This document shows, one piece after another, positions 29,223-60,980 of a DNA stretch of 64,000 nt. The stretch is taken from assembly GCA_964601625.1 (NCBI GenBank), contig CAZROC010000005.1, forward strand, positions 21,077 through 85,076, written 5' to 3'. The notes beneath the pieces are model-generated. The model was not told the origin of the DNA and did no database searches. It was given only the letters and a program-made list of their open reading frames with translations. The DNA is from an uncultured Thermoplasmata archaeon (lineage in GTDB: Archaea > Thermoplasmatota > Thermoplasmata > JAGHBH01). A program made the position numbers and the translations under genes. Within the stretch, counting starts at the first letter, position 1. Each line of letters begins with the position of its first letter.

Positions 29223-29306
29223 TGGCCTGGTTGTTATATATAGTATGAAGAGTTTTAATTCAACAAACGCTACCGGTTTACTCTTTTAAGGTAAGGAAGT
29301 GATAAA

Positions 29307-31347: not shown

Positions 31348-31379
31348 TATCGTGATATATTAGTTTTTGTCCGTCGCAC

Positions 31380-32716: not shown

Positions 32717-32822
32717 CTCCTTTCACCGGGTCAATGTTTGAGCCGTCCCTTTTAACCACGGCGCCAGTGCATGTATCAAATTACCCATATTTATGGTTTT
32801 TCTATTTCTCAGCCTTTTTGAC

Positions 32823-34723: not shown

Positions 34724-34900
34724 GGCATCACCTCTGTGTTCAGATACTTTGTTTTACAGATAAAGGAGGTGTTGGTGTTAAAAAACATTTTCTCTAATCT
34801 GCCAGATGCGAGGTGCCAGATGTGAAACCGAGATGCGAAGACCGAAGACCGAAAAAACTTTTAATCCCGAGATACATAGATACAATAGTGAGGAGAGAGA

Positions 34901-45274: not shown

Positions 45275-46693
45275 TCAGAGCGCGGTGGCGTCCATGCCTG
45301 TGTGAAGAGACAAGCGTGGTCTTATCATACAGTACTCCAGTTTTCGGGTTCGGTCGTCAAAGATTATAGCAAGTCCCCTCCTGGAATCCATTGTGCTGAC
45401 GAGAGAGGCAAGGTCTCTTCCTTTTCCCATAAAACTCTGCCTGGCCTTTGACAGACTCGTTATGTCCGGCTCTGCGGTTATCTGGTGAGAAATCACCATA
45501 TCCGCTTGGCGTATGGCCGTGTCGTGGATGGCAGAGGGCTCCTGTGTGGCCAGCACGATGCTGAGCCCCGGGTGTCTCCCCAGTTTTATCCAGTCAATAA
45601 GCGGTTGCGAAGAAATCGTGGTCCCATCTGATGGGAGAAAAAGATGCGCCTCGTCTATGACGAGATATACCAGCGGGATGCGTTTCTTTTTTCCGCCGCC
45701 CCCTTCCAGGTCCCATTCTTCTTTGCTCTCCCCGCTGTTTCCCAGCAGTCCCGCCAGTTTCTGCATCTCCACGGTCATTTCAACGGTTTTTTCATGCAAC
45801 AACCTCTCAGCAATAAGCGCGACCACAAAAGACCGCATGTCAAGGGTGCCCATTCTCCTAAGCCCGCTTATGTCAAGTATGGTTATCCTGCCTCCCTCCA
45901 CCAGAGATTGTCCGCTCCCGTCTTTGTCCTCTGAAAAAAGCCCGGTGTTTTTCGCCATTCTGAGAAGGGCAACAAGTGCTTTTCTGGTCTGCTCGTCCGA
46001 GCCCATCTTTTCCGCTGTTTGTATCATATCACTCAGGGTGTACCCGGCGTGTCCGTGTCTTGCATATCCGTGTTCCGCGCCGTCCGGGTATCCATCCATC
46101 TCTGCCCTTTTTCTGTCTCTGAGGCTTTCCAGAACGTCCAGCAGGAGAGTGCCCACAGGGTCTGTTGGGGAGAGGTGGAAAAGCGAGAGCCACATGTGCT
46201 GGCTGACCTCGTCGGCCCGGAACTCCAGGAGCCGGTCCATGTACGGTTTCTGCCCGGTGGATTCAAGCTTTTCCACGGTCTTTCTGGGCATGGCTATCAA
46301 AACGTTGTCCAGCCCCCTTGGAGCCAGCTCTCTGAAATCCTTCATCCGCTCCACTTCAGCCGCATTTGTGTTCGGGGACTTCAGGCTGTGAAAAACGCTC
46401 ATGGTGTCCACGACGAGAACCGCTATCTTGTTTCTCATCTCCGCCGGCAGAAGAGAGAAATTTTCAAGGAAGACACCGAGGGTGTAAGACTTTCCCGTTC
46501 CACGTTTGCCCAAGACAAGGATACAGTGGGGCGTGGCGAGGTCAACGTAGAGTGCGCCCCCCTCTTCATAGACCCCGCCTGGGTAAGACACCACTTTTCC
46601 CATATAACCGCACCCTTCCGAGCCGTACTTTTTAACATCGCTCTCTCTTCTGCCCAGTATTTCAGTTCTCACACATCTCCCTCCACATGTCAC
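45275..46693 (-). CDS. DUF87-type HerA/VirB4-like P-loop ATPase
   Basis: Walker A (HCILVLGKRGTGKSYTLG), Walker B (LVYLVIDEAHLFLP) and LATQEPSAIHDTAIRQADMVISHQI match the FtsK/HerA/VirB4 clade. The start overlaps the stop of the upstream platform gene (ATGA). Confidence 0.7.
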   Translation of the reverse strand: MTCGGRCVRTEILGRRESDVKKYGSEGCGYMGKVVSYPGGVYEEGGALYVDLATPHCILVLGKRGTGKSYTLGVFLENFSLLPAEMRNKIAVLVVDTMSVFHSLKSPNTNAAEVERMKDFRELAPRGLDNVLIAMPRKTVEKLESTGQKPYMDRLLEFRADEVSQHMWLSLFHLSPTDPVGTLLLDVLESLRDRKRAEMDGYPDGAEHGYARHGHAGYTLSDMIQTAEKMGSDEQTRKALVALLRMAKNTGLFSEDKDGSGQSLVEGGRITILDISGLRRMGTLDMRSFVVALIAERLLHEKTVEMTVEMQKLAGLLGNSGESKEEWDLEGGGGKKKRIPLVYLVIDEAHLFLPSDGTTISSQPLIDWIKLGRHPGLSIVLATQEPSAIHDTAIRQADMVISHQITAEPDITSLSKARQSFMGKGRDLASLVSTMDSRRGLAIIFDDRTRKLEYCMIRPRLSLHTGMDATAL

Positions 46694-48777
46694 GCCAGTA
46701 TGTTCATACCACTGGCCGCCGCAAAGACGAAAAGCGTCATGGCAGCCGGTAGAGAGTGCCCAAGAGATCTTTTAAAGGCGACACGGTCGTCGCCGCCGAG
46801 TATGCCCGTGGTGAAATAGGATGTTGTCACAACAGAGAAAAAAAGAAAAACAGCGAGCACCCCCATGAAGGCGTCTGTTGAAAGAGATGGCCTTGCTCCG
46901 AGCGTTGAGAACTCTCTTGTGAGAAGAGAGTAGAGAGATACAGTGACCCCCATCACAAGCGGGGCGAAAATGATGCTCGTGCTCTTCATCATATCAACTA
47001 CACTCTTCAACTTTGTTTTTATGTCATGGTCAACCTTTTGCATCTCACGCAGATAACTGGAAACGGATATTATCGTCTCGCCAGCAGAAACAGGGTCTTT
47101 TTTAACACATTCAACCAGCGTTTTCATAGCAGCACGTACGCCTCTGCTGTCCATGTTCTCCATCAACCCTCCACGGCCAAAAAGGATGTGGTCAAGCGGT
47201 TTTCTGCTTATTCTCAGGCGGTTTGAAATGTCCACCATGAGGTTGCCCAGGGGTGTGTCGCCCAGGGCCCGGCCAGACTTGTGCACTGCGGTCTCAAGAG
47301 GGTCCCCCTCCAGCAACCTGCTCCCGATGTGAAACAGGGCGTCTGGGAGCTCTTTTTCCATTTTCAGGAGGCGTTTTCGTTCCCTCTCGCTTTTCTCCGT
47401 GGAAACCACAAAAAACACTCCCAGACCATAGCTCACGGAGAGCAAAAAAACAACCACGCCCGGCAGAGCGGAGAAAACAGGGACATCCATGCCGACATCT
47501 CTGAGCGTCAACATGAGAACGGGAAAAAACCCGGCCACGGCACCAGCCAGCACGCCCTTCTTTTTCTCCCGACTCCACCCAACTTTTTCCACCTGTGGCG
47601 GAGCGGAAGTGCCCGGTCTCTTTCCGAGTATGTAATATGCATAGGCAAAGGTCGAGAAAGGAAAAACGACGTCCATGAGAGCCACAACAGCCAGGCCGAA
47701 ATCCCCGCTGCCTTTCTCCACGCTTTCGCCCACGGAGCCGGAGACGTCCTCCAGCTCGTCCACGCCCGTGACACTGTTAGAAGCGCCCGCTCCACCAGCG
47801 GTGACAGATATGTCCATTCCCTGGAGGGGTATAACTGCGCCCATCAGCATGGGGAGGACCACCCCCAGGGCGAAAAGCACGGTTGTTGGGCCGCTCAGAG
47901 AAGAGGCGAACTCTTCCACCTTTTCCTTTGAGCCGTTTATGACTATCATGTGTGCCTTTTCAAGTGCCCGTTCACGCATCTCAGGGGACGCCTCGGAAAC
48001 AGCGCTTTTTATGGTGTAAAGGGCGCGCTTGAACTCCTCACTCCACGCACCCCATCTCTGGGCAAAAACACTCAACGCCTCATCAACCGTTTGATGCCTG
48101 CGCAGAGCTACCTCGCGCAAAACCCTCCTGAAATGTGACGCCAGGGGCTCCTCGCTGTTCTCGGCAGCGAACTCAACCGCTCTCTCAAGAGAAGGCGAAG
48201 TCCTCAGGCTCATGGTCATGTAATTTATTGGCTCCGGTGTCCGACCGATTGAAAGCGCCTGGACCCTTTTTGCGAGAATCTCAGGATACGATGAGAGGAG
48301 CAAGAAAACAATCGCCGGCCCGAAAAGAACAACAGGAAGCAGATATGATCTGTAAAAATCGTAATGGGCGGGAAAGAGGGAGACCAGAGCGTAAAAACCC
48401 ATCAGAAGAGCGGTGAAAAAACAGACAGATACAACAGCAGAGAAACGGACGGCCTCCTGCGGGTAAACGTCCATGCCAAGAAAATATGTCGCCTCTGTAA
48501 AAGATGGCTGAAGAACCTGTCTGCGGGTCTTATCCCACTTCTTTTTTTCCCGTTCATATAGATCCCGGGCGTCCCGCACCTCTGGCGAACCTGGCGGGAA
48601 GTTCATCTCAACACCCAGAAGGTTTCTCTTAGCTGCCAGGAGGCGTTTTTCAGCACTGTACAGTTTTTTTCTGTCCACTCCGCCTCCGCCACCAACGGCT
48701 TTGCAGCCGATATAATACCACCTGCCGTACCGGGGAAAATATGACCGCCGCCGGTCATCGCCGTGCTTGTCCCTCAT
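46690..48777 (-). CDS. TadC/FlaJ/PilC-like polytopic membrane platform protein (two T2SS-F-like repeats)
   Basis: 695 aa. Two cytoplasmic helical domains, each followed by TM helices, give a GspF-like architecture. ATGA-coupled on both sides. Confidence 0.7.
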   Translation of the reverse strand: MRDKHGDDRRRSYFPRYGRWYYIGCKAVGGGGGVDRKKLYSAEKRLLAAKRNLLGVEMNFPPGSPEVRDARDLYEREKKKWDKTRRQVLQPSFTEATYFLGMDVYPQEAVRFSAVVSVCFFTALLMGFYALVSLFPAHYDFYRSYLLPVVLFGPAIVFLLLSSYPEILAKRVQALSIGRTPEPINYMTMSLRTSPSLERAVEFAAENSEEPLASHFRRVLREVALRRHQTVDEALSVFAQRWGAWSEEFKRALYTIKSAVSEASPEMRERALEKAHMIVINGSKEKVEEFASSLSGPTTVLFALGVVLPMLMGAVIPLQGMDISVTAGGAGASNSVTGVDELEDVSGSVGESVEKGSGDFGLAVVALMDVVFPFSTFAYAYYILGKRPGTSAPPQVEKVGWSREKKKGVLAGAVAGFFPVLMLTLRDVGMDVPVFSALPGVVVFLLSVSYGLGVFFVVSTEKSERERKRLLKMEKELPDALFHIGSRLLEGDPLETAVHKSGRALGDTPLGNLMVDISNRLRISRKPLDHILFGRGGLMENMDSRGVRAAMKTLVECVKKDPVSAGETIISVSSYLREMQKVDHDIKTKLKSVVDMMKSTSIIFAPLVMGVTVSLYSLLTREFSTLGARPSLSTDAFMGVLAVFLFFSVVTTSYFTTGILGGDDRVAFKRSLGHSLPAAMTLFVFAAASGMNILA

Positions 48778-51254
48778 TTGACCACCCCACCCCCACCCTG
48801 TTCAAACCCCTTCTTCCACTCCTCAAAAAACTCCGCGGCGTCATCTTCCCCGCCCGTTTTCCACCCCTCGTCAACCATGGACCAGAAAAGCGAATACGCC
48901 CTGCTGACACTCTCCGGCCTGACAGCGCCCGTAAAACCGCTGTTCCCCGCCACCTCCACCAGATACCCGTGTATTTTTCCCCGGACATCAATGTTGTAAA
49001 TCGCTTCTTCAACACGCATGCCCCAGTCCCTTGCTATGCGGGCGACTACCTCGGACCTGTAATAAAAATCGTCTGTTGGGACAAGAGAGTCTTTTACATC
49101 CGAGTATTCCATCAGAGCCCTGAACTCTCCCTCAACGTCTTTGTCTACCTCAGCCACAGAGAGAACCCGCCTCCGAACCCGGTGGCCGCCTCCGGGGCGC
49201 ACCAGACCGGCGACAACCACAACATCTGTGGCAGAAAAAGACGGGAACGGGATGCCGATGTCATGGACCACTCTCTCATAAACCGCCCTGGGGCTGTCGG
49301 CGTGAAAAGTTCCCATGACAGAGGAACCAGCAGTCCCGGTCCTCATGGCCTCATACAGCACCTTTGCTTCTTCGCTCCGTACCTCTCCGAGAACAAGGGC
49401 GCTCTCACCCAGACGCAGCGAAACCCGGAGCGCGTCTCTGCTATCAGAACCGTTTCCCACGAGCATGCTCTGGACCTTATATCCCAGTTTCTGCATCTCA
49501 CGGACAGGCAGCTCGGGGGTGTCCTCTATTGTCAGAACACGCTGGCTCTTCGGGAAAGCAAAAAGCATCCCGCCAAGAAGAGACGACTTGCCAGCACCCC
49601 TGCTACCCGCAATTATTATGGTCGCCCGCCCATCAACCAGAAACCACAGGAGACCACAGGCCATCGGGGAAAGAGACCCGGCCATCAAAAGGCGGGGGAG
49701 TGTCCACGGATCAAGCGAATGTCGCCTCAGAGCAAGTGCCACACCGCCGGGACTCAGAGGGGGCCCTATCAACGTCGCACGGGCGTTGAACTCCGGCATA
49801 TCCGTCTCCAGAACTGGGTTCGCTTCGGAAAAACCCCTGCCGCTCACGTGCCTGAGACGTGAGACCATGCTCTGAAGGTCCCTCTCGCTCAACGTTATGT
49901 TCGTGACCATTTTGGAGGGTATGTCCACGCCGGCGGAGCCAACGACCACGTGTACAGGGTTTTCCTCGCACGGAGCGTTAACATAGATGTCCTGGACATA
50001 AGGGTGTTGTAGGAGGAACTCCAGCACACCAACGCCTGTCGTGTACCTTCCGAGAATTAGAGCCAGTTTCCGCGCCTTCTCGGCATCTTCCATTATCGCG
50101 CCCCGCCTCGTCCTTTTTCTCCTGCGCTGCAGTTTTCTCAGGATGATCCTCTCAGCCAGTCTCTCAACAAAGGCCCTCGCAACATCCGGTTCTCCCATAT
50201 TTATCTCAGAGAGGTCCCTGGAAAGAATCTCCTCAATGGTCTCGTAAACCAGCACGACATCTGATTTTTTCATAGAATACTCGTCCGGTATCATATGGAG
50301 AAAGCCTTCTGTGGAACCTGGCAACCGGTACATCCGTGTCCAGACACCCCCCTCCCTCTTTCCACCCAGCAACGTACCATCTGGCGTCTTCTTCTCTATC
50401 CACGTCGTTGAAAAACACGGGCGAATCTGTCTGGTGCTTTCAAGAAAGGTGTCTATGTCTTCATAAAAGCCGCTCACGTCCACCCCCCTTATTTTGCGTA
50501 TAACATCTCCCAGCAGCGGATGGTTTTTTACTCGTATAGGCCCTCTCTTTTTTCCGTTGTCATCTCCTCCCCCGTCACCCACCCTTTTTATGTGCATATT
50601 GATCCCGGTGCCCTCGGAGATTCCCGCCCCCCCATCCAGGTGTTTTACCACGTGCTCCCTCATGGACTCCGCCATGGAGAGCAGCATAACCACACGATCC
50701 CTGGTCAAAGAAGAACACGAAAAACACCCCCTGTTTTCCCTCACCTGGCTGAAAGAACCGCTCAACAGCAGATCTCTGAGGTACATATAAAAATCTCCGG
50801 GGTCCAGAAAAAGCCGTTTCCTTGCCTCAGTGAAAACGTTTTTGGGGTTAACGGAGCACCTTTCACACCGGAGGCCAAGCAACCCACTCTTCGGTCCCTG
50901 GGACCGGACAAAACTGTCAAGCTCAGCCACGATCGCGCCAATCTTTTTTAACAGATCGACCCCGGGGCCAGGATACATCTCCTCATTATAGTCTTCCAGG
51001 ACAATCCTGTCCACAACAGTTTCCTGCGATACAACCCTTATGGCGCCAGCCCTGCACCGGAGGTTCAAAAGTGTCCCTGCACCAGGGCACGAACGGCACT
51101 GTAGAAAAACTGTGTTTTTGCCCCCATCCTTTTTCACCTCATAGCGGCAGATGGAACTTGAGAGATCAACATCCTCTCGCTCGCCACGGGCACAAACTCT
51201 CTCTTCATCTGAGCCCGAAACGGGATTCACAACACCGTCTTTCCCCATAAGCAA
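48774..51254 (-). CDS. FlaI/TadA/VirB11-family secretion ATPase with ~330-aa Cys-rich N-terminal extension
   Basis: The C-terminal half has Walker A (IIAGSRGAGKSSLL), ALVLGEVRSEEA (Asp/His-box region) and TIEDTPEL. The N-terminal 330 aa are unrelated to the usual FlaI N-domain and carry CRSC, CERC and CFSC motifs. Confidence 0.8.
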   Translation of the reverse strand: MLMGKDGVVNPVSGSDEERVCARGEREDVDLSSSICRYEVKKDGGKNTVFLQCRSCPGAGTLLNLRCRAGAIRVVSQETVVDRIVLEDYNEEMYPGPGVDLLKKIGAIVAELDSFVRSQGPKSGLLGLRCERCSVNPKNVFTEARKRLFLDPGDFYMYLRDLLLSGSFSQVRENRGCFSCSSLTRDRVVMLLSMAESMREHVVKHLDGGAGISEGTGINMHIKRVGDGGGDDNGKKRGPIRVKNHPLLGDVIRKIRGVDVSGFYEDIDTFLESTRQIRPCFSTTWIEKKTPDGTLLGGKREGGVWTRMYRLPGSTEGFLHMIPDEYSMKKSDVVLVYETIEEILSRDLSEINMGEPDVARAFVERLAERIILRKLQRRRKRTRRGAIMEDAEKARKLALILGRYTTGVGVLEFLLQHPYVQDIYVNAPCEENPVHVVVGSAGVDIPSKMVTNITLSERDLQSMVSRLRHVSGRGFSEANPVLETDMPEFNARATLIGPPLSPGGVALALRRHSLDPWTLPRLLMAGSLSPMACGLLWFLVDGRATIIIAGSRGAGKSSLLGGMLFAFPKSQRVLTIEDTPELPVREMQKLGYKVQSMLVGNGSDSRDALRVSLRLGESALVLGEVRSEEAKVLYEAMRTGTAGSSVMGTFHADSPRAVYERVVHDIGIPFPSFSATDVVVVAGLVRPGGGHRVRRRVLSVAEVDKDVEGEFRALMEYSDVKDSLVPTDDFYYRSEVVARIARDWGMRVEEAIYNIDVRGKIHGYLVEVAGNSGFTGAVRPESVSRAYSLFWSMVDEGWKTGGEDDAAEFFEEWKKGFEQGGGGVVK

Positions 51255-51298
51255 CCGCCAACGTGGTCCCTCATGGAGAAGTGGTTTAAAAGGTTTTG

Positions 51299-52315
51299 CT
51301 TTCTTAAAACGAGTGCAGTATCCCGAAATATTTTAACAGTTGTTCCTGTTAGGGGTATGCGGAAGTTGAATGATAGGAAGGTTCGTTGGATTATCAGGGA
51401 GATTGAGAAGGGTTCCAGTATGTCCAGGGTAGTTCGTATTCAGGGGGTTTCCCGTGTGCGTGTTTGGCAGTTGTGGCGGGAATACGTGGCCACTGGAGAG
51501 GTTCCACGGTTACGGAAGCCTGGTAGGAAGCCTGTCCCTATACCTCGGCATGAGAGAGAGCTGGTTTTTGAGATGTATGAGAGATACAAACTCGGCCCCC
51601 TGGCTTTGGAAAGAAAGATCAGGCGGGAGACCGGACAGCATATCCCACACAACAAGATATACCGGATCATGTTGGAAGGAGGGCTGATTGTGGAAAACCC
51701 AAGAAAGAAAAGACAACGCAGATATGTGAGATTTGAAAGAACACACTCGATGAGCATGTGGCAAGGCGACTGGAAACAAGTCCAAATAGACGGCGAAAAG
51801 AAATGTCTCATTGCCTTTATGGATGATGCCAGCAGACGAATAATGTGCTATGGAATCTACGATCATGCGACCACAGAAAACACCATACGGACACTAAGAG
51901 AGGGTTTCCGCAGACACGGGTGTCCTAGGGAGATTCTCATAGACCACGGACCACAATTCACAGCCAACAAAAAAAGAGACAAGAAAGGACGCGGTAAACA
52001 TCCTTTCCCAGAGTTCCTGAGACAACACGGCATAAAACATATTCTAGCAAGGGTCCAACACCCACAAACAAATGGCAAAATAGAACGCTTCTTCGGCACC
52101 CTCGAACAAAAACTCCCACTGTTCAACAACAACATACACGAACTCATACACCGGTACAACTATGACAAACCACACATGAGTTTGGATTTTGAGAACGCAG
52201 AAACACCAGAAGAAGCATTCTGGAGAAAACTCCCACCAGAAAAAATCCTTGAATACGCGGGGTGGTTACTTGAAGCGTAAAATCAATTCAGGATACTACA
52301 CTTTCTTAAAACGAG
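51299..52315 (+). mobile_element. IS481-like insertion sequence (987-bp core 51314-52300) with imperfect terminal inverted repeats and 15-bp direct target duplication
   Basis: Left end TGCAGTATCCCGAA (51314-51327) and right end TTCAGGATACTACA (52287-52300) are inverted. Identical CTTTCTTAAAACGAG copies flank both ends (51299-51313; 52301-52315). Confidence 0.65.
51357..52280 (+). CDS. transposase (HTH + DDE integrase-core/rve domain)
   Basis: DDE region (CLIAFMDDASRRIM...ILIDHGPQFTA...HPQTNGKIERFFGTLEQ) is typical of IS481/IS3-type rve. The Met at 51357 lies within the IS boundaries. Confidence 0.75.
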   Translation: MRKLNDRKVRWIIREIEKGSSMSRVVRIQGVSRVRVWQLWREYVATGEVPRLRKPGRKPVPIPRHERELVFEMYERYKLGPLALERKIRRETGQHIPHNKIYRIMLEGGLIVENPRKKRQRRYVRFERTHSMSMWQGDWKQVQIDGEKKCLIAFMDDASRRIMCYGIYDHATTENTIRTLREGFRRHGCPREILIDHGPQFTANKKRDKKGRGKHPFPEFLRQHGIKHILARVQHPQTNGKIERFFGTLEQKLPLFNNNIHELIHRYNYDKPHMSLDFENAETPEEAFWRKLPPEKILEYAGWLLEA

Positions 52316-52360
52316 CGATTGGTTTATATCCTCTGCTTTTTTTATGAGTGAGGAGAGAGT

Positions 52361-53398
52361 ATGAAAGTAATGATGTGTCCGCCAACTGGAACTCCATATT
52401 TAGATCTGTTGAAACAAGCGTTGGAGGAAGAAGGAATTAGGGTGGTCCCGGTTTCTTGGTTTGGCAAACAGACGGTGTATTCGCTATCTCAGCTTTTTAA
52501 AGGAAAAATAGGTGGGGCGAACATATTACATTTGCATTGGATGCCTTTTAACTGGTTTTACATGATGAGAATGGTGAGAAAGATATCTGGTTTTATTAAG
52601 GCAGAAATGGTATGGACCATTCACAACCTAATACCACATGAACCCAGATATGGAAGCACTGAAAAAGATATAGAGGCAATGAAATATATGGCTAATTGGG
52701 CGGTTGCGGGTATAGCACATTGCGAAAAAACGAAAGAAGAGTTTCATCAAATATATAGAAAAGATATGCCTATTTTTGTAATACCTCATGGTAATTTTAA
52801 TAAATATACCACTCCTTTTATCAAAGATCCAGAGGAATCACGAAAAAAATTGAATATACCGCCTGATAAAATAGTTCTTTTGCTGTTTCCTGCTAATCGT
52901 TGGAACAAGGGTATAAAAATGTTTATTGATGTAGTAAAGAAGCTTCCGGAAGAATATATGGGAATCCTTGCTGGAAAATGCAAAAATACAGAAATAAAAA
53001 ATTATATTAAACGAGAGACACAAAAAAATAGAGATAAATTTATAGTCAACCTTGGGTATCTAACTGATGAGGAAGCTGGATATTATTTTAGCGCCTCAGA
53101 CATATTTTTTATGCCATACACATACATAACTACTTCCGGTAGTGTGATGTATGCATTAGGGTTCAAAAAACCGGTCATTTCTACGCCAAAGGGTAACTTA
53201 TATCAACTTGTGAAAAACGGTATTAATGGCTTTTTATGTGAAAATGAAGAAGAAATGATAGAAAAAATACTTAGTATAGATCGGGAAACAGCTAGAAAAA
53301 TGGGAGAAGAAAGTTATAGAATAGCATCTCAACCTCAATTTAATTGGAGAGAAATTGCTAAAAAAACAATATCTGTTTATGAATATATAACAAAATAA
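52361..53398 (+). CDS. GT1/GT4-family glycosyltransferase
   Basis: C-terminal GT-B pattern (ALGFKKPVISTPKGNLYQLVKNGINGFL). AT-rich codon usage. Confidence 0.7.
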   Translation: MKVMMCPPTGTPYLDLLKQALEEEGIRVVPVSWFGKQTVYSLSQLFKGKIGGANILHLHWMPFNWFYMMRMVRKISGFIKAEMVWTIHNLIPHEPRYGSTEKDIEAMKYMANWAVAGIAHCEKTKEEFHQIYRKDMPIFVIPHGNFNKYTTPFIKDPEESRKKLNIPPDKIVLLLFPANRWNKGIKMFIDVVKKLPEEYMGILAGKCKNTEIKNYIKRETQKNRDKFIVNLGYLTDEEAGYYFSASDIFFMPYTYITTSGSVMYALGFKKPVISTPKGNLYQLVKNGINGFLCENEEEMIEKILSIDRETARKMGEESYRIASQPQFNWREIAKKTISVYEYITK

Positions 53399-53486
53399 AA
53401 GAACAAAATAATATAAAATAAAAAATAATATTAAGAGATATAAAAAACTGGCGGATGGATTTTTATACTGTAGGGACTATTTACCG

Positions 53487-54911
53487 TTGATGTTAGAAAA
53501 CGGAAAGCCAGACATCCTCTTTATAGTCTTGGACACTATGCGAAAAGATTATACTTTAATGCTTGAAAAAGAATTATCAAAATACAATTTTATATCTTAC
53601 GATAGGGCCATTTCTCCGGCTCCTTGGACCACACCATCTCACGCATCTATTTTTTCTGGGATGTATCCTGCTTTCCATGGGGTTCATGAGTCCAAAAGAA
53701 GAAAGCTGACAGATGTGTTTTTTAAAAAAGGGTTAAATAATCTTATTATTTCATTAAAAAATCATAAATATAAAACATGTCTGTTCAGTAGTAATAACTT
53801 TGTAACTCCAATCTATGGGTTTAAACCATTTGACCATTTTTTCTATGTTCACGCGTTCCCTCCCTCCTGGAACTTTTTATCAGATCAGGAGAGAAAAATA
53901 ATCTCTAAAATGAAATTTAATATCGACAATCCATTCCAAATGATAAATTTATTACATAATTCTGATGTTAAAATCACAGCTCTTAAATATATCTCCGAAA
54001 CGACGGCAAATATGTTAATTAGATTTAACGCAAAATTATTTTTTAATTGGCCAAAAAATAAAGGTAATCGCTTATTAACAAATAAAGTAAAAGATGTTCT
54101 TTTAAAAGAAAATAGTTCTTCATCTGATAGATATCCTCGTTTTATTTTTGTAAATTTTATGGAAGTTCATGAGCCATACACCATCAATGAACCAGTTAGT
54201 TTTTTGGATAATCTAAAAGAGAATGGGGCGTCTGAGAGGAATCTCTACGTCTGGAAAAAGAAATATAAGGAATTTTCTGAATATCTAAATAAAAATATAA
54301 TAACATTAATAAAAAACCTTGAAGATAAACTTGATAACATGCTAATCATAATTACCAGCGACCATGGACAGCTTTTAGGAGAGCATGGAAATAAAGTGGG
54401 TCATGGAACATATCTCTATGATGAACTTTTACGGGTTCCATTTTTAATTAGGTATCCGGATTCTTGGAAAAATAAAAATTCTCTTGAAAGATGGGAAACA
54501 ACAGACACCGAATCATGGCTTAGTTTGATAAAAGTAAAAGACATCATTGAAAAAGTTATCCTGTCCGATTCCTCCACTGTCTCAAAGAAGAAAATTCTAT
54601 CGGATATTGTATTCAGTGAAAGTTACGGGATACATCGTCGTGTAAGCTGGCTAAACGATTCTAAATCTCTGGCATCCAACGGAAAAACAGAAGAAATGGA
54701 GATAATCAAAAAAATCACACATTTAGAAAAGTACAGGATCGCAATATATTATAAAAATTCCAAAGTGATATTTAATGTTTCTGACTGGAAAATAGAAAGC
54801 ATTTCTTCTTTTAGTGATAAGATAATTGACGAAAAAGCTCTCATATATGAAGTGAAGAAACACGTCATGAATTTTATAAAAACTTCTACCGTACGCTCTT
54901 TAGTGCGTTAA
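53487..54911 (+). CDS. sulfatase-family (alkaline-phosphatase superfamily) protein
   Basis: N-terminus ILFIVLDTMRKDY...SPAPWTTPSHASIFSG resembles the sulfatase/phosphotransferase metal-site region. SDHG also present. Confidence 0.65.
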   Translation: MMLENGKPDILFIVLDTMRKDYTLMLEKELSKYNFISYDRAISPAPWTTPSHASIFSGMYPAFHGVHESKRRKLTDVFFKKGLNNLIISLKNHKYKTCLFSSNNFVTPIYGFKPFDHFFYVHAFPPSWNFLSDQERKIISKMKFNIDNPFQMINLLHNSDVKITALKYISETTANMLIRFNAKLFFNWPKNKGNRLLTNKVKDVLLKENSSSSDRYPRFIFVNFMEVHEPYTINEPVSFLDNLKENGASERNLYVWKKKYKEFSEYLNKNIITLIKNLEDKLDNMLIIITSDHGQLLGEHGNKVGHGTYLYDELLRVPFLIRYPDSWKNKNSLERWETTDTESWLSLIKVKDIIEKVILSDSSTVSKKKILSDIVFSESYGIHRRVSWLNDSKSLASNGKTEEMEIIKKITHLEKYRIAIYYKNSKVIFNVSDWKIESISSFSDKIIDEKALIYEVKKHVMNFIKTSTVRSLVR

Positions 54912-54956
54912 AAGTATGCCTTTTGTCCTTTTCGTACTTCCGGCGAGGATGTCAAG

Positions 54957-55806
54957 TTATTGCCTCCTTAGGTTGTATATTGTGATGAATGATAGGCACC
55001 ATGATAGTGCTGTTTCTGGTTTGGCGTTGTGTGGCCATCTTTTGTAGAATTGTTTGATTCTGTGTTTGAATATGTGGTACCATTGCTCTATTGGGTTTCT
55101 TGGTCCGAAGGTTTTGTGTTCCCATGTTAGTCCCATTCGTTGTAGGGCCCATGGGTTTGTTGGGAATTGCTTAGGGCAATTCCCCAAATCGTGCGGAATT
55201 TTAACAGAGTTAAAATTCCGTAGATACCATGGGCCCCCGTCTACGTAGATGTGTGGTTTGTTTGTACAGGTTTTTAGGATCTTTCTTAGAAAGATGTATG
55301 TGTCTAGTCCTGAGCGGGTTGTTGTTATTTGTATTGCTAGTATTTCCCATGTTTGTGTGTCTATGGCTGTCCACATGTAGTGCCATTTTCCCTGGATTTT
55401 TATCTTTGTCTCGTCTATTGCTATTGTTGGTCTATGTTTTTTCTCGGGTGTTGATAGTAGGTGTTTTGCTCTGTGGTACCATTGTCTGGCTGCCTCATAG
55501 CTGCCTCCCCCCGAACAGTCTCAGGACTTCCTCTGTTTTCCTATAGGATAGTCCCAGGTAGACTAATAGTATTTCCAGCGCTCTTATTTCCATGGGGGTT
55601 CTTTCTCTCACGAAAACCTTTTTAGCCCTTAACAATTCTACTATCCTCGTGAGCATATCCCATCCCTTCTGGCCCAACAAACCGGACCAAAACAGGGATA
55701 TGCTCACACCAAACTTAACACTTATCTTGACATCCTCTTCCGGCTTTATGGTATGCTTTTTATATAAGAGAGTATATAAGAGATTCTTGAGGGAATGCGA
55801 TGCCAA
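54957..55806 (-). pseudogene. IS6-family-like transposase, disrupted (N-terminal HTH ORF 55495-55806; DDE fragment 54957-55376)
   Basis: The N-terminal ORF (RERTPMEIRALEILLVYLGLSYRKTEEVL) and the C-terminal fragment (WTAIDTQTWEILAI...NPIEQWYHIFKHRIKQF) lie in different frames with a gap, so the element is degenerate. Confidence 0.5.
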
Positions 55807-57389
55807 AACTTATAATCCTAGGTCTTGACGGCGCTACATGGGATATATTAATGCCTCTATTAAACGAAGGCAGGCTTAAAAACTTAAAACGTATGGTTGA
55901 AAATGGTAGTTATGGAAATTTAATTTCTACAATCCCCCCAATAACTTCTCCCGCATGGGTATCCATGGCTACTGGGAAAAATCCGGGGCAGCTGGGAGTC
56001 TTTGATCTGTTGTATAGAGAAAACGAAGAAGAATTAACTTTGAAGCCTGTTTATTTCTATATGTTTAAAGGAAGTTTTTATTGGGATTTTTTGTCTAACA
56101 TGGGTTACAGAGTAGGACTCATTTTTTATCCTTTTCTGTACCCTCCATACAGAATCAATGGAATTATGGTTCCGGGATATGGCGCACCGTCTGAAGAAAA
56201 GATGTATCCATCCACCCTTTCGGATGAAATAAAGAAACGATTTGGAGAAATTAAATTTATGAAAGGTAGCCCAGCAGGTCTAAGCGATGAAAAGGCCTTT
56301 AAAGAGATTGTTTCAATAACGAAACAGCATTTTGAGATAGGAAAATACATCATTGAAAATAATGACTTGGATGTAATAACGTTTGTCATTTCTGGTACGG
56401 ATTGGATTCAGCATTTTTTCTGGAAATTTCTTGATCCAACACACGCGCTTTATGATGAAAAAATCGCTACTGTTTATAGAGAAAAAATATTTAAATTTTA
56501 TGAATATATAGATGAACAAATAGGAGATATTATTGGAATGTTTCCAGATAGCAACTTTATTATAGTTTCTGACCATGGTTTTGGTTCCTTAGATCAATAT
56601 TTCAATTTAGTTAAATGGTTGATTGATAATGGTTATATGGTATTTAAAAGAAAAATATCTGGATATTCAAAATTTAAAAATTCTATATTACAGTTCATGA
56701 GTAAGATAAACAGGCGAATTCCAATAGTAAAGATAATTCCCCGTTCTATATCAAAAAAAGCATGGGCAACCCTCAAAATTGATATCTCAGAAGTTCTTGA
56801 TTTAGAAAGGACAAAAGCATTCTGTTTAGGACATCATACGTCTATGGGAAGCATATATGTAAATAAGACGCTTATTTCAAATAAAAAAGATGTTGAAAAA
56901 ATAAAAAACGATATAAAAAACGGTTTAATAGAAACACTAAAACGTTTTGGCGTGGAGAATGTTAAATTTTATTCAAAAGAGGACATCTACCATGGGAAAA
57001 AAGCTCATCTGGCTCCGGATATGTGGTTCTCTGTGAACGATGGAAGATGTGCAATTATGCAACAGAGGATTGATCATCCAGTTCTGTTTGAAAATGTCCC
57101 ACTGGAAAAACGGATAAATGGAAGTCACCGCTTTGAGGGAATTTTTTTAGCATATGGACCTGATCTGGCGGCGAAAGGAAACATGGGAGATCTGTCCATA
57201 TATGATATTGCACCTACTGTTCTATCGTTTTTCGGTATACCCCCCCCATCTGATATGGACGGCAAAGTAATAGAGGAAATATTACCCCGAGGCAGGGTTA
57301 GAAATATAAAAAGTGTTTCAGCGAGAGACCTCGAAAAGATGCGCATAAAAGAAAAACTCCGCCAGATGAAACAGTTAAAGAACGTATAA
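55800..57389 (+). CDS. alkaline-phosphatase-superfamily protein (type I phosphodiesterase/nucleotide pyrophosphatase-like)
   Basis: ILGLDGATWDIL...SPAWVSMATGKNPGQLGVFD...SDHGFG are metal-site motifs of PF01663-like enzymes. Confidence 0.6.
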   Translation: MPKLIILGLDGATWDILMPLLNEGRLKNLKRMVENGSYGNLISTIPPITSPAWVSMATGKNPGQLGVFDLLYRENEEELTLKPVYFYMFKGSFYWDFLSNMGYRVGLIFYPFLYPPYRINGIMVPGYGAPSEEKMYPSTLSDEIKKRFGEIKFMKGSPAGLSDEKAFKEIVSITKQHFEIGKYIIENNDLDVITFVISGTDWIQHFFWKFLDPTHALYDEKIATVYREKIFKFYEYIDEQIGDIIGMFPDSNFIIVSDHGFGSLDQYFNLVKWLIDNGYMVFKRKISGYSKFKNSILQFMSKINRRIPIVKIIPRSISKKAWATLKIDISEVLDLERTKAFCLGHHTSMGSIYVNKTLISNKKDVEKIKNDIKNGLIETLKRFGVENVKFYSKEDIYHGKKAHLAPDMWFSVNDGRCAIMQQRIDHPVLFENVPLEKRINGSHRFEGIFLAYGPDLAAKGNMGDLSIYDIAPTVLSFFGIPPPSDMDGKVIEEILPRGRVRNIKSVSARDLEKMRIKEKLRQMKQLKNV

Positions 57390-57393
57390 CTTC

Positions 57394-58122
57394 TCAGTTC
57401 CCCGCCGCCTCCAGTATCACCCTTGCGAAATCTGTTATTTTTGGTGTGCCAAGGTCTGTGAAGTTGGTGCTCCAGAATCCGTAGTCGGAGTGGTCTCCAT
57501 ATGCTCCTACGGGTTTCATTCCGTGGTCGGACAGGACTATTTTTTTGCCCGGTGCTTTTGCTTCCGCTGTTTTCACTATGTCTTCTATGTCCCGGTATAT
57601 CATTTTCATGAGCAGTCTGTTTCCAAAGTTGAGGTGGCCTATCACGTCTGCCACGGAGAAATAGCCGAGGACGAGGTCGTGGTCTTCTCCAAGTGCTTTG
57701 AAAAACTCCTCTTTTATTTTTCTGTGGTGGGCGAAAGAGAGGTCGTTGTACTCTTTTTTTATCTCTTTTTTCTTTTCCTCGTCCTCCGCCGAGAAATAGG
57801 CTTTGAGAAGTTCTCTTTCTCTGCTGTGCTGGTTGAGGTCGTAGTTGTATCCGGGGAGATCTATTATTTTTGGGTTGTCAAAACGGGAAAAAAAGGTTTC
57901 TTCCAGGGGAATGCGGGTGTTCCACATCTCTCTGTCTCCTTTTGCGAGTATCTCTGCCTCTTTGTTCTGCCCGGTCATGAATGAGCTCCACAGCACCATC
58001 GTCCTTGGCTGGGAGAACTCTGTTATGTCTGTTTTTCCGTAAAACTTCTGTTTGATTCCTCTGAGGTTAAATTCCTCCACCAGGCTGTACTCCAGCGCGT
58101 CAACGGCTATTATGGTTATCAT
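57394..58122 (-). CDS. small alkaline-phosphatase-superfamily protein
   Basis: IIAVDALEY...VLWSSFMTGQ...LSDHGM is the same metal-site pattern in a shorter protein. Confidence 0.45.
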   Translation of the reverse strand: MITIIAVDALEYSLVEEFNLRGIKQKFYGKTDITEFSQPRTMVLWSSFMTGQNKEAEILAKGDREMWNTRIPLEETFFSRFDNPKIIDLPGYNYDLNQHSRERELLKAYFSAEDEEKKKEIKKEYNDLSFAHHRKIKEEFFKALGEDHDLVLGYFSVADVIGHLNFGNRLLMKMIYRDIEDIVKTAEAKAPGKKIVLSDHGMKPVGAYGDHSDYGFWSTNFTDLGTPKITDFARVILEAAGN

Positions 58123-58160
58123 CTTTTCTTCCTCCCTGTGTCTGGCGTCTCTATTTTGGC

Positions 58161-59447
58161 CTATCCGAGGTGGGTTATTATTCCTCCGCCGGATATGTCG
58201 TATCCTTTTTCTATTACGAAGCGCCCTAGTTCGGGTGTGCGGTTGAAGTCGTCAACCACGACCTCTTTTGTGAAAGAGAGCACGACCTCTCCTACTTCCC
58301 TGTTCTGAAGCGCCTCGGCGTTTTCTTCCAGGGTCTCCAGCGTGGAGGAGTCTATCCGGCGTGTGATTTCCTCAACTATGCATGGCACTTCCTGGGTGGC
58401 AACTTTGAAGGTCACCGTTTCTCCCTTTTTGAGGGGCTCTTTGCTCATCCAGAACAGGTTCCCACGTATCTTTTTGGTCACGGAGGGCTGTTTTTCCTCT
58501 TCACACAAAACGTCGCCTCTGTCTATGAATATCTTATCCGTGACTGTTATTCCCGTGCTTTTTCCCGCCTCCGCTTTTTCAACGTTTTTTTTCATGAACT
58601 CCTCTATCGTGGCAATGGTGGTTTTCTCTCCAGATGGAAGCACCAGCACTCTGTCTCCCACGTGTATTGTGCCCGCTTCCACTCGTCCCACGATTATGCG
58701 CTTGTTGTCGATGTTGTAAACGTCCTGAACGGAGAACCGGAGCGGGTTTTTCTCCCTGTTTTCCATTTTTTTGAATGTGTCCAGTGCCTCCAGTATCGTC
58801 GGCCCATCATACCATGGCATTCTGTCGGATTTTTTTGCCACGTTGTCTCCCTCTTTGGCGGAGATTGGGATTATGTAAGACGGCTCTATGTCTATCTTTG
58901 CCAGGAACTCTTTTATGTCCTTGCTGACATTCTCAAAAACATCCCTGGCGTAACCGACCAGGTCCATTTTGTTTATGGCCACTATCACCTGTTTGAGCGC
59001 CAGCATTCCGAGGATGTACGCATGGCGGCGCGTCTGCTCCTGCACCCCCTCCTGTGCGTCCACAATAAGGATCGCCGCCTCCGCCTGAGACGCCCCCGTT
59101 ATCATGTTCTTTGTGAACTCTCTGTGCCCGGGCGCGTCAATAATGACATAGTTTCTTTTTTCTGTTTTGAAAAATGTCTGGGCGGTGTCTATGGTTATGC
59201 CCTGGCTACGCTCTTCTTCCAGGTGGTCCATGACATAGGCAAATTCCAGGTCTTTGCCCAATGCCTCGCAAATCTTTTTCACCTCTTCTATTTTCTCTCT
59301 GGGAAGGCTGTCTGTGTCAAAAAACAAGCGCCCTATCAGGGTAGATTTTCCGTGGTCAACATGTCCGACTATGACCAGTTTCAGATCCTCCTTCTCCTCA
59401 ACTGTTTTTTTATCCACATCACTCATGCGGCTCGCCTCCATGGTCAT
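58161..59447 (-). CDS. cysN: sulfate adenylyltransferase subunit 1 (GTPase, CysN)
   Basis: G1 to G4 motifs (GHVDHGKST; DAPGH; NKMD) and EF-Tu-like domains II/III. 428 aa, so no fused APS kinase. Confidence 0.8.
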
Positions 59448-59527
59448 AAATCACCTGTCCACGTAAATGTACATATCACACATATCACTTACTTCAGTCA
59501 CTTCAGTCGCTTCCTTCAAAGAGCACC

Positions 59528-60328
59528 TTACATGTATCCAAGCGCTCTCAGTTTTTGCATCATATACGCCCGCTCTTTGTCCTGTGCTCTCCCCGCTCTC
59601 TCGGCTGTTGTGGTGGTCTTCAACTCTTCTATTATCTTGTCTATAGTGTCTGCGTCCGATGGCACAGGGCTGCAGCACGGTTCGCATCCTATGCTCCGGT
59701 ATCTCTTCCCGTTTTTGGCAAAGTAGAGTTCCACGACTGGTATCCCCTCACGTTTTATGTAGTTCCATATGTCAAGCTCTGTCCAGTGGAGGAGCGGGTG
59801 TACCCTTATGTGCTGTTCTCCCTCCTGTTTTGTTTTGTACTGGTCCCAGAGCTCGGGCGGCTGGTCTTTGTAGTTCCACTGGAACGCCTGGTCTCTCGGA
59901 GAAAAGTATCTCTCTTTTGCTCGTATGCCATGCTCATCCCTGCGTATTCCCAGGAGGAGGGCTTTGAACCCGTATTTTTTAATAGTCATCTTCAGAGCCT
60001 CCGTTTTGAGAGCCGTACAGCAGGCTAGTTTTCCCTTATCCGGCCCCATACCAGCCGCTATGGCCTCTTCGTTTCGCCCCACGATGAGATTGAGGTTCCA
60101 CTCTTTCGCCCATTTGTCCCTGAATTCGTATATCTCTTTGAATTTATAGGACGTGTCTATGTGGACGACGGGAAAAGGAACTTTTCCGTAGAAGGCTTTC
60201 CTTATAAGCCAGACGAGTGTGGTTGAGTCCTTCCCTATACTCCAGAGGGCGGCTATGTCTTTGAACTGCCTGTACGCCTCTCTTATAATGTATATGCTCC
60301 TGCTTTCCAGCTCGTCAAGGTGGTCCAA
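59528..60328 (-). CDS. cysD: sulfate adenylyltransferase subunit 2 (CysD)
   Basis: PAPS-reductase-like fold with WSIGKDSTTLVWL (PP-loop) and CysD-type length. Confidence 0.85.
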   Translation of the reverse strand: MDHLDELESRSIYIIREAYRQFKDIAALWSIGKDSTTLVWLIRKAFYGKVPFPVVHIDTSYKFKEIYEFRDKWAKEWNLNLIVGRNEEAIAAGMGPDKGKLACCTALKTEALKMTIKKYGFKALLLGIRRDEHGIRAKERYFSPRDQAFQWNYKDQPPELWDQYKTKQEGEQHIRVHPLLHWTELDIWNYIKREGIPVVELYFAKNGKRYRSIGCEPCCSPVPSDADTIDKIIEELKTTTTAERAGRAQDKERAYMMQKLRALGYM

Positions 60329-60356: not shown

Positions 60357-60584
60357 TCAATCGAGGTATCCCAGGCTTCTCAGCCTCTCCTTTATCTTTT
60401 TTTCGTCTTCTTCAGACAGTTCAGGTTCTTCCTCGCCAGCGTCTTCCACAACTTCGTTCAAAACAAAGAGCACGTATTCTTCCACGCTGCCAAACCCGAC
60501 GTCTTCAACTCTTTTTTTGAGCTTGTTGTAGAGGTCCATTGGTATTTCCAGCTGATATGTGTCCTCCTTTTTTTCATCCACCAT
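60357..60584 (-). CDS. small ribbon-helix-helix-like protein with acidic tail
   Basis: 75 aa. YQLEIPMDLYNKLKK resembles an RHH beta-strand plus helix, followed by an E-rich C-terminus. Confidence 0.3.
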   Translation of the reverse strand: MVDEKKEDTYQLEIPMDLYNKLKKRVEDVGFGSVEEYVLFVLNEVVEDAGEEEPELSEEDEKKIKERLRSLGYLD

Positions 60585-60767: not shown

Positions 60768-60790
60768 GGGCCCGTGGCTTAGCCTGGTGG
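60768..60790 (+). other. 23-nt fragment nearly identical to 5' end of tRNA-Ile (GGGCCCGTGGCTTAGCCTGGTGG)
   Basis: Compared by eye with the 5' end of the intact tRNA at 60903 (GGGCCCGTAGCTTAGCCTGGTTGG). It cannot fold into a full tRNA. Confidence 0.5.
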
Positions 60791-60875
60791 CCCAGAGGAA
60801 GCTGTGTTTCCTCTTTGCCTCGGCTATCGCCCGGCCCAGAGGAAGCTGTGTTTCCTCTTTGCCTCGGCTATCGCC
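60789..60875 (+). repeat. perfect tandem duplication, 2 x 43 bp (period 44) containing a 6-bp-stem hairpin GAGGAA-gctgtgt-TTCCTC
   Basis: ggcccagaggaagctgtgtttcctctttgcctcggctatcgcc occurs at 60789-60831 and again at 60833-60875. Confidence 0.85.
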
Positions 60876-60902: not shown

Positions 60903-60980
60903 GGGCCCGTAGCTTAGCCTGGTTGGAGCGCCCGGCTGATAACCGGGAGGTCCGGAGTTCAAATCTCCGCGGGCCCACCA
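60903..60980 (+). tRNA. tRNA-Ile (anticodon GAT), CCA encoded
   Basis: Cloverleaf: acceptor GGGCCCG/CGGGCCC, anticodon stem CCCGG/CCGGG with loop CTGATAA, T-loop TTCAAAT. Confidence 0.85.

Follow-up and report, generated by a model that had tools for sequence, protein, structure and literature searches.

A sulfate-activation cassette of archaea that includes a minimal alkaline phosphatase-superfamily enzyme, and its association with glycan-modification genes

Introduction

A 64,000-nucleotide stretch of DNA from an uncultured Thermoplasmata archaeon (contig CAZROC010000005.1; below, the window) contains cysD and cysN, encoding the two subunits of sulfate adenylyltransferase, and directly after them the gene of a minimal enzyme of the alkaline phosphatase (AlkP) superfamily, here called mini-AlkP. 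Next to this cassette lies an AT-rich island of glycan-modification genes. The closest described systems are the bacterial cysDNC genes (Escherichia coli; Pseudomonas syringae 1ZUN; Mycobacterium tuberculosis CysD-CysNC), which have the same subunits, the same cysD-cysN order, and a third gene directly after. In the archaeal version, however, the third gene encodes a 242-aa AlkP enzyme of the nucleotide pyrophosphatase/phosphodiesterase (NPP) type and not the adenosine 5'-phosphosulfate (APS) kinase, and neither cysC nor cysH is nearby. Further, a small open reading frame (ORF) similar to ribbon-helix-helix (RHH) proteins comes first, and a TauE or DUF2061 gene is often found between cysD and cysN.

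Sulfate activation dedicated to sulfating a glycan or glycolipid is represented by the rhizobial NodPQ-NodH and the mycobacterial CysDNC-Stf systems. There, as in the archaeal loci, the CysDN-type genes are tied to a glycan-modification locus rather than to cysteine biosynthesis. NodQ and CysNC carry an APS-kinase domain, make 3'-phosphoadenosine 5'-phosphosulfate (PAPS), and use PAPS-dependent sulfotransferases, whereas neither the kinase nor such sulfotransferases were found in the archaeal loci, which have AlkP proteins instead.

The sulfated glycoproteins of Halobacterium were described in the 1980s. Haloarchaea make sulfated N-glycans, and the responsible sulfotransferase is not biochemically defined (PMC3892788, PMC11407970); in the Agl5-Agl15 pathway of Haloferax volcanii, Agl7 is genetically required for the sulfation of Dol-P-hexose (PMC3892788). 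Reviews list just two kinds of sulfotransferases, the PAPS-dependent ones and those of the aryl-sulfate-dependent arylsulfate sulfotransferase (ASST) type, and describe the archaeal ones as uncharacterized (PMC11625862, PMC11407970). The ASST enzymes, the only known PAPS-independent sulfotransferases, act by a covalent ping-pong mechanism (PMC11625862); they are periplasmic beta-propeller proteins with a His nucleophile and aryl-sulfate donors, and are unrelated to the AlkP proteins in sequence and donor. The cysDN genes of anaerobic methanotrophic archaea (ANME), Ca. Methanoperedens, and a few methanogens have been treated as assimilatory, with no mention of the third gene, and read as a puzzling, energetically costly step of assimilation (Yu et al. 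2018; PMC6286981).

Results

An archaea-wide cassette

We define here an archaea-wide cassette that consists of an RHH-like ORF, cysD, an optional TauE or DUF2061 gene, cysN, and the mini-AlkP gene. The literature searched has no description of it, nor relevant work on DUF2061 in connection with sulfate or on APS-dependent AlkP sulfotransferases, which is not proof that none exists. A survey with one genome per species yielded 79 loci (the L-numbers below are locus codes). The cysN gene lies directly upstream of mini-AlkP on the same strand in all 76 informative loci, the remaining three ending at a contig edge, and the two genes overlap or are separated by at most 60 nt in 68 of these 76. The cysD gene is upstream in each of the 65 loci with sufficient sequence, and the order small ORF, CysD, CysN, mini-AlkP is identical in four unrelated contexts.

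The cassette is carried by Thermoplasmatota, Methanothrix, Ca. Methanoperedens, ANME-2, other Methanosarcinales, and Methanomicrobiales, as well as by Methanomassiliicoccales, Methanofastidiosa, Hadarchaeota, Bathyarchaeota, and Altiarchaeota, and DPANN genomes make up 25 of the 79 carrier species. A few carrier loci are in bacterial bins, all but one of them on short contigs. The closest relatives of the sulfate-activation genes of the window come from metagenome-assembled genomes (MAGs) of Thermoplasmatota. More than 500 homologs of mini-AlkP were found at 60-74% identity, with names that go no further than "alkaline phosphatase family" or "hypothetical". The G+C content at third codon positions (GC3) of the cassette varies from 0.14 to 0.89 and tracks each host, so the cassette is resident and not recently transferred.

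Some loci have an additional gene between cysD and cysN: in about 15 it encodes a TauE/TSUP permease, in about 12 a membrane protein with two helices (DUF2061), and in one Micrarchaeota locus a HIT-family protein (L078:8305-8748). Several CysD proteins of 680-707 aa were considered as CysD fusions, that is, as Rosetta-stone evidence, and rejected, since they contain inteins instead. These intein-bearing proteins are encoded at L060:6481-8604 (Euryarchaeota SM23-78), L077:6655-8697, and L079:4726-6801, the L077/L079 set comprising a "Saccharibacteria"-binned contig and an unclassified archaeon. The inteins occupy two different sites, one after the PP-loop GKDS and the other after KER(x)F. The presence of an intein-bearing cassette of the archaeal type suggests that the 70-kb "Saccharibacteria" contig is misbinned.

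The cassette and the adjacent island in the window

The cassette of the window is on the minus strand. Its first gene is the 75-aa RHH-like ORF (60357-60584), which is kept beside the cassette in other archaea; it is followed by cysD (59528-60328, 266 aa), the catalytic subunit, and, after a gap of 80 bp, by cysN (58161-59447, 428 aa), the GTPase subunit. The PF01663-like mini-AlkP gene (57394-58122, 242 aa), 38 bp further, is the last gene of the operon. CysD scores 360.7 bits against NF003587, above the cut-off of 195, and 267 bits against the stricter TIGR02039, under the cut-off of 396.6; it has the PP-loop motif "SIGKDST" and ends in "...MQKLRALGYM". CysN passes TIGR02034 (391.1 bits, cut-off 336.1), and its G1-G4 GTPase motifs, including NKMD, are seen in the translation; it matches just positions 15-416 of the 632-position CysN/CysC model and has no APS-kinase domain. 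By these matches CysD and CysN are shown to be the subunits of a heterodimeric sulfate adenylyltransferase, so the predicted activity is APS synthesis. The 75-aa ORF has no match in Pfam or NCBIfam; it combines an RHH-like N-terminus, an acidic linker, and a CysD-like tail "...KERLRSLGYLD", and is probably an RHH protein. The cassette aside, the window and its nearest relatives have no common synteny, so that the cassette behaves as a self-contained module.

On the other side of mini-AlkP, the island encodes three proteins on the plus strand: the 345-aa GT-B glycosyltransferase GT345 (52361-53398; Glycos_transf_1/Glyco_trans_1_4, GT4-type; PF00534, E=2.4e-15), the 474-aa Sulfatase-family protein Sulf474 (53487-54911; PF00884, E=2.8e-23), and the 529-aa NPP-like AlkP-superfamily protein PD529 (55800-57389; PF01663, E=4e-33). 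The gene calls of the initial annotation, which had been made from the letters of the window (glycosyltransferase, sulfatase-family, IS6, and AlkP-like genes, CysN, CysD), were all upheld, as was its placing of cysN and cysD directly downstream of the island on the opposite strand, both proteins passing NCBIfam cut-offs. It had counted two AlkP-like enzymes in the island, and this holds for PD529. The 242-aa gene has a native GC3 of 0.59 and lies on the strand of cysDN, and therefore is a member of the cysDN operon rather than island cargo.

Glycan genes near the cassette

The arrangement in the window is one instance of a recurrent association between the cassette and glycan genes. A census of neighbors, assigned with Pfam, drew on 70 loci and a distance of up to 5 kb from the cassette; it covered 403 ORFs with a length of 130 aa or more. 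The commonest families are Phosphodiest (27), Polysacc_synt, a Wzx-type flippase (25), Epimerase/GDP_Man_Dehyd (25), and UDPG_MGDP_dh (about 13); methyltransferases, GT1, GT2, Sulfatase/SGSH_C, and NTP_transferase are also frequent. Considering the 50 loci with a flank of at least 6 kb, at least one glycan-type gene is present within 6 kb in 35 and at least two categories of such genes in 27, while a large AlkP-superfamily paralog is near the cassette in 21, including paralogs of the PD529 type in 16. By these counts, the occurrence of glycan genes and AlkP paralogs beside the cassette seems to exceed chance.

Individual loci illustrate the composition of these neighborhoods. For instance, the L094 cluster contains GT1, methyltransferases, a flippase, DegT, epimerases, and four AlkP-type paralogs together with cysD-cysN. 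In Methanoregula (L063; 10869-15223), mini-AlkP is followed by a PAPS_reduct-like gene of 219 aa and then by a Sulfatase-GT2 fusion of 1233 aa. A related module was found in Halorhabdus tiamatea, where overlapping genes for a GT4, a Phosphodiest protein of 538 aa, and a Sulfatase-family protein of 481 aa (Sulf481) adjoin AglB/STT3. It is the same three-gene module as in the island, with 33% identity between the Phosphodiest proteins, 27% between the Sulfatase-family proteins, and identical nucleophile motifs. Neither cysDN nor mini-AlkP is present within 10 kb of the Halorhabdus trio. No STT3 was found among the 39 window ORFs scanned, and the linkage to AglB is seen just for the homologous Halorhabdus trio.

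As a separate observation, a thioredoxin gene and a Cys-rich 503-aa short-chain dehydrogenase/reductase (SDR) gene are located just upstream of cysD in L094 (region 14063-14371).

Other genes of sulfate metabolism

With E. coli CysC as the query and E<=1e-3 as the threshold, tblastn found no match in the window, none in L001-L012, and none in the 1.03 Mb of the 79 cassette loci, so mini-AlkP holds the slot that cysC has in the cysDNC operon of E. coli. E. coli CysH only cross-matches CysD in the window. In the 1.03 Mb of flanks the CysH matches also coincide with CysD, except for a 197-aa PAPS_reduct-like gene in L031; the gene in L063 mentioned above is a second separate one of this type. The statement that the window contains neither cysC nor cysH is thereby borne out. 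For sulfite reductase, no NIR_SIR family is among the families listed for the 403 neighbor ORFs. Pfam detects no PAPS-dependent sulfotransferase domain in the 39 window ORFs, and the Sulfotransfer family is not among the 25 most frequent families listed for the neighbor ORFs.

The initial annotation had named cysH and sir genes just past the window end as the finding that would point to assimilation. The contig continues for 15.4 kb past this end, of which about 9.8 kb were read; they contain no cysH, sir, or cysC; the genes present there encode Adk, UbiA, Topo VI A/B, MOFRL, a 2-hydroxyacid dehydrogenase, and a tungstate-type WtpBC transporter. This ABC system, about 13 kb past cysD, was considered as a sulfate transporter and rejected, being similar to tungstate WtpBC.

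The AlkP-superfamily enzymes

A predicted Thr nucleophile is common to mini-AlkP, PD529, and Sulf474, and the first two have the bimetal ligand set and Thr nucleophile of the NPP-like branch of the superfamily. An alignment of 37 mini-AlkP sequences has D7, T40, N52, D158, H162, D198, H199, and H210 as invariant residues. The metal motifs of ENPP7 are matched by the stretches with D158/H162 and D198/H199, and N52 is putatively equivalent to Asn111 of NPP. The AlphaFold2 (AF2) model of mini-AlkP has a pLDDT of 94.6. Its nearest folds in the PDB are ENPP5, Xac NPP, ENPP4, and sulfatases, with 10-15% identity, TM 0.4-0.6, and a Foldseek probability of 1.00 to NPPs. This makes mini-AlkP a minimal, distant NPP-type member of the AlkP superfamily.

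In PD529 the nucleophile is Thr49, within "PPITSPAW", and D10, T49, D201, H205, D258, H259, and H443 are invariant in 40 homologs. Its AF2 model (pLDDT 89.1) has ENPP1-AMP and Xac NPP as the best PDB folds, with E of about 1e-16. Thus NPPs (Xac NPP, ENPP1/4/5), which bind AMP-containing substrates, resemble both proteins in fold, bimetal ligands, and Thr nucleophile. Identity to NPPs, however, is only 10-16%; mini-AlkP is about 140 residues smaller, has a helical insert of its own (residues 95-143), and is apparently cytoplasmic, and a genomic coupling to APS synthesis is not known for NPPs.

Sulf474 is like the type I sulfatases (PF00884) in its family match and in its C-terminal metal-site region, which is alignable to solved sulfatases, but it has T-T-P-S-H in place of the formylglycine motif CxPxR. 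When Sulf474 is aligned to the iota-carrageenan sulfatase 6pt4/6pt6 (C-S-P-S-R in 6pt4), Thr is beneath Cys and His beneath Arg. Having no C/S-x-P-x-R motif, Sulf474 is outside the catalytic class of formylglycine sulfatases, so the earlier label of this gene is valid as a family match to PF00884 and not as a formylglycine sulfatase. The motif PWT(L/T)PSH of Sulf474 recurs in Sulf481 of Halorhabdus. By eye, Sulf474, PD529, and mini-AlkP have no signal peptide or transmembrane segment, and all three are apparently cytoplasmic.

A long-form subfamily of mini-AlkP (263-330 aa; representatives P0136-P0270) has an insertion after the nucleophile helix. Its members are not encoded after cysN; the single context seen (L094:8001-8966) is within the glycan cluster, 6.5 kb from cysDN.

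A shared C-terminal tail

The motif (K/R)L(K/R)xLGY(L/I/M/F)(D), below the LGY tail, is found at the extreme C-terminus of 59 of 62 archaeal CysD proteins and of all 66 small RHH-like ORFs; E. coli CysD ends in "...KKRQGYF". In the window the tail belongs to the ORF at 60357-60584 and to the end of CysD (59528-59560); a further example is at L096:10001-13059. The tail also occurs in large Phosphodiest homologs (113 of 217 overall, with 83 of 97 in the haloarchaeal set), in all three AlkP-superfamily proteins of Halorhabdus, in the Sulfatase-family neighbors in L034 and L080, in the PAPS_reduct-like protein in L031, and in 18 of 103 long-form relatives of mini-AlkP. It is present in none of 73 CysN proteins, in one of 72 short mini-AlkP proteins of the loci, and in none of 120 database homologs of the latter. 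Most close relatives of PD529 have a basic variant, "...KIKxLKxKGKI", and PD529 itself ends in a basic helix, "...KLRQMKQLKNV".

The LGY tail may serve for docking to a shared partner such as CysN, which would fit its presence in CysD; it may also be an amphipathic membrane-targeting helix. Under either reading it links CysD and the small ORF to the AlkP paralogs.

Composition, borders, and origin of the island

The island, 5.1 kb long and located at approximately 52.3-57.39 kb, has a GC content of 0.31-0.38, whereas the background mean is 0.525 with SD 0.025 (1-kb windows, n=109), corresponding to z from -5.5 to -8.5. GC3 is 0.28 in GT345 and 0.30 in both Sulf474 and PD529, compared with 0.615 in CysN, 0.614 in CysD, and 0.56-0.64 in the Que genes and AspDH. 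The AT-rich stretch from the right end of the IS481 element to about 57390, described initially from codon usage, is confirmed by these values, and the GC scan proposed at that time places it outside the background variance.

At the left border of the island is the gene of a 335-aa IS481-like transposase (51273-52280, plus strand) with rve and rve_3 domains. Its top NCBIfam match is IS481 (192.5 bits, under the cut-off of 224), and its GC of 0.46 is intermediate. Inside the island, an IS6-family element of about 793 bp (54945-55737, minus strand; NCBIfam IS6, E=1.9e-18) retains 15-nt terminal inverted repeats (54945-54959 and 55723-55737). A single frameshift, seen in the three-frame translation, splits its transposase into the ORFs 55495-55707 and 54957-55376, in agreement with the frameshifted IS6 reported earlier.

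The horizontal acquisition proposed for the island is supported by its extreme composition and the two IS elements; neither a donor nor a relative lacking the island was found. The top homologs of PD529 are just 41-44% identical (Freyarchaeota and other MAGs), with no recognizable donor among them. The closest genomes (L013-L015) have the cassette in common with the window and no flank synteny, and in a metagenome scan no strain exceeded 66%. Identity between PD529 and its positional counterpart in L013 is a uniform 30%, so there is no recombination junction within the gene. Low-GC3 glycan genes beside a cassette of native composition were also found elsewhere (0.33 versus 0.57 in L013, 0.31 versus 0.55 in L026), and the GC3 of AlkP paralogs is far below that of the adjoining cassette in several further genomes. 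Because of this recurrence, the island looks like an ordinary variable surface-glycan module rather than a one-off acquisition.

Other features of the window

Upstream of the cassette, the gene of tRNA-Ile(GAT) (60903-60980, plus strand; ARAGORN, Rfam) is divergent from the cassette and not adjacent to the island. Between it and the upstream region of the cassette lies a perfect tandem duplication (60789-60875; 2 x 43 nt, period 44; GGCCCAGAGGAAGCTGTGTTTCCTCTTTGCCTCGGCTATCGCC) with a 12-nt hairpin in each copy.

A second AT-rich island (27975-29981; GC 0.33-0.36, GC3 0.31-0.32) has one gene (27975-29222) for an N6/N4 DNA methyltransferase whose C-terminal region is SNase-like and one (29307-29981) for a MjaI-family restriction endonuclease; the two form a mobile type II restriction-modification pair that has no relation to the glycan island. 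This second island is followed at 29998-38758 by an additional cell-surface cluster, in which a MATE/flippase-like transporter is encoded at 29998-31347, a protein of the exosortase/archaeosortase family at 32823-33815, a sugar-nucleotide epimerase at 33812-34723, and a 1285-aa protein with NHL repeats and a C-terminal DUF835 domain at 34901-38758. A GT2 glycosyltransferase is encoded at 16022-17482.

Directly left of the IS481-like element, the minus strand (45275-51254) carries a module similar to type IV pilus and secretion systems. It encodes a T2SSE-family ATPase of 826 aa, which has a long extension at the N-terminus, a T2SSF-like membrane protein of 695 aa, and a HerA/Zot-like ATPase of 472 aa, and may be a surface-filament or DNA-transfer system adjoining the glycan island. 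Archaeal markers on the contig and in the window are topoisomerase VI, archaeal-type QueCDE, the FlaI/T2SSE-like ATPase, and the archaeosortase-family protein.

Discussion

The initial annotation had suggested that sulfate activation in this locus serves the synthesis of a modified glycan and not assimilation. This functional reading is partly supported: it is strengthened by comparative genomics and is unproven. The glycan loci, the absence of cysC nearby, and the restriction of separate PAPS_reduct-like genes to two loci agree with it, and sulfation itself is just inferred. What the comparison adds is that sulfate activation in these archaea may be dedicated to glycan modification with different, uncharacterized downstream enzymes.

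At somewhat less than even odds (roughly 45%), we suggest that APS is used directly, without PAPS, for the sulfation of glycans by AlkP-superfamily enzymes. By family membership, CysDN converts sulfate and ATP to APS, driven by GTP hydrolysis, and the APS would be neither phosphorylated to PAPS nor reduced locally. The APS-consuming enzyme would be mini-AlkP. The AlkP-superfamily enzymes would be transferases of the ping-pong type: on attack of sulfur by their metal-activated Thr, AMP would leave, and the sulfuryl group would then pass to a sugar hydroxyl. The acceptor would be a cell-surface glycan, with APS as the direct sulfuryl donor. Since the strong conservation of mini-AlkP points to a substrate that is small and universal, the shared step on APS is tentatively assigned to it, and the choice of acceptor to the variable large paralogs. 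EptA/MCR-1 and LtaS are similar to the proposed mechanism in forming a covalent Thr intermediate with subsequent transfer to a glycolipid or glycan. This is an analogy only, as these are membrane-anchored, extracytoplasmic enzymes with lipid donors and phosphoryl transfer, and the island proteins have no Pfam or NCBIfam match to them. A wider proposal is rather doubtful, namely that the Thr-nucleophile AlkP proteins, comprising mini-AlkP, the long forms of 280-320 aa, the Phosphodiest type of about 530 aa, and the "sulfatase" type of about 470 aa, form a new class of carbohydrate sulfotransferases that use APS directly, need no APS kinase, and are physically coupled to CysDN, possibly via the LGY tail.

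Several points weigh against the direct use of APS. The main one is that the nearest structural relatives, the NPPs, attack phosphorus and not sulfur; this precedent would predict hydrolysis of APS, with AMP and sulfate as the products, or a transfer of AMP. The conservation of mini-AlkP suggests a small universal substrate over variable glycans. No glycan gene is present within 6 kb in 15 of the 50 loci, and PD529 and Sulf474 of the window do not carry the LGY tail. The absence of cysC, cysH, and sulfotransferase genes is a statement about flanks of up to 10 kb and the 39 window ORFs. A link to Agl7 of Haloferax, considered as a possible AlkP-like protein, is not supported, no Haloferax or Agl7 entry being among the 120 best haloarchaeal relatives obtained with a Halogranum seed.

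One alternative is that a generic acquired glycan module stands by coincidence beside an ordinary assimilation operon, in which mini-AlkP is an accessory hydrolase (of pyrophosphate, APS, or AMP) that pulls or proofreads the sulfurylase, while APS is reduced by enzymes encoded elsewhere. This we regard as unlikely, although NPP-type enzymes cleave nucleotide pyrophosphate bonds and the fold of mini-AlkP matches NPP, its conservation at 60-74% across phyla fits PPi or APS as the substrate, the same 15 loci have no nearby glycan genes, and L031 and L063 have additional PAPS_reduct-like genes close to the cassette. The ANME and Methanoperedens cysDN genes have, besides, been taken as assimilatory (Yu et al. 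2018; PMC6286981). Those two small genes, however, are the only exceptions to the absence of a canonical cysH from the 1.03 Mb of flanks in 79 species, and the carriers are mostly anaerobes from sulfidic habitats. DPANN archaea have reduced genomes and generally lack amino-acid biosynthesis, and yet they provide 25 of the 79 carriers. Coincidence also accounts poorly for the recurrence of glycan genes and AlkP paralogs beside the cassette, which seems to exceed chance for rare families, and for the CysD-type tails that tie these paralogs to the cassette. A comparably low probability applies to the possibility that the large AlkP proteins (PD529, Sulf474, and relatives) are phosphotransferases or phosphodiesterases acting on glycans, with any sulfation carried out by PAPS sulfotransferases encoded elsewhere. 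The substituents would then be phosphoglycerol, phosphoethanolamine, inositol phosphate, or sugar-1-phosphate, corresponding to the "phospho-modified" product that the initial annotation offered as its other option and equally improbable in our estimate. The folds are NPP-like, and the characterized Thr-nucleophile members of the superfamily (NPP, EptA/MCR-1, LtaS) transfer or hydrolyze phosphoryl groups; further, the Halorhabdus trio is located by AglB with no cysDN within 10 kb, and the Thermococcus N-glycan bears inositol phosphate (PMC11407970). Phosphoryl transfer would leave unexplained, however, the position of mini-AlkP in the cysDN operon in 76 of 76 loci, the clustering of the large paralogs with cysDN in 21 of 50, and the CysD tail on these paralogs, and it has to reckon with the lack of an APS kinase near any cassette and of Sulfotransfer among the top neighbor families listed.

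Least probable of all, in our view, is the synthesis of a sugar with a C-S bond, in which APS would be converted to sulfite and an SDR would join sulfite to a nucleotide sugar. The product would be sulfoquinovose or 6-C-sulfo-fucose, as in the N-glycans of Sulfolobus and Thermoplasma. The closest relatives of the cassette are indeed from Thermoplasmatota, and 6-C-sulfo-fucose is known from Thermoplasma N-glycans (PMC11625862). SDR "Epimerase" genes are frequent neighbors (25 of 403 ORFs), and the thioredoxin and Cys-rich 503-aa SDR by cysD in L094, as well as the PAPS_reduct-like extras in L031 and L063, would suit such a pathway. Nevertheless, the cassette has no conserved APS reductase, and the AlkP fold is incapable of the required two-electron reduction. 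At 300-340 aa, most of the neighboring SDRs have the usual length of epimerases and dehydratases, whereas SQD1/Agl3-type enzymes have about 390 aa.

The cassette provides a single testable answer to two questions, which enzymes sulfate archaeal glycans and why cysDN is retained in ANME and methanogens. It names as candidates a soluble enzyme of about 240 aa (pLDDT 95 model) and its larger paralogs, and predicts PAPS-free sulfation on an AlkP fold. Even if the direct use of APS is wrong, the obligate pair of cysN and mini-AlkP marks an unknown accessory step of sulfate activation. If it is true, these proteins would be a new class of sulfotransferases, possibly useful for enzymatic sulfation without PAPS, and the scoring of cysDN in metagenomic surveys of the sulfur cycle would change. 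Such a class would also explain why cysDN is kept without sulfate assimilation in methanogens, ANME, and DPANN archaea.

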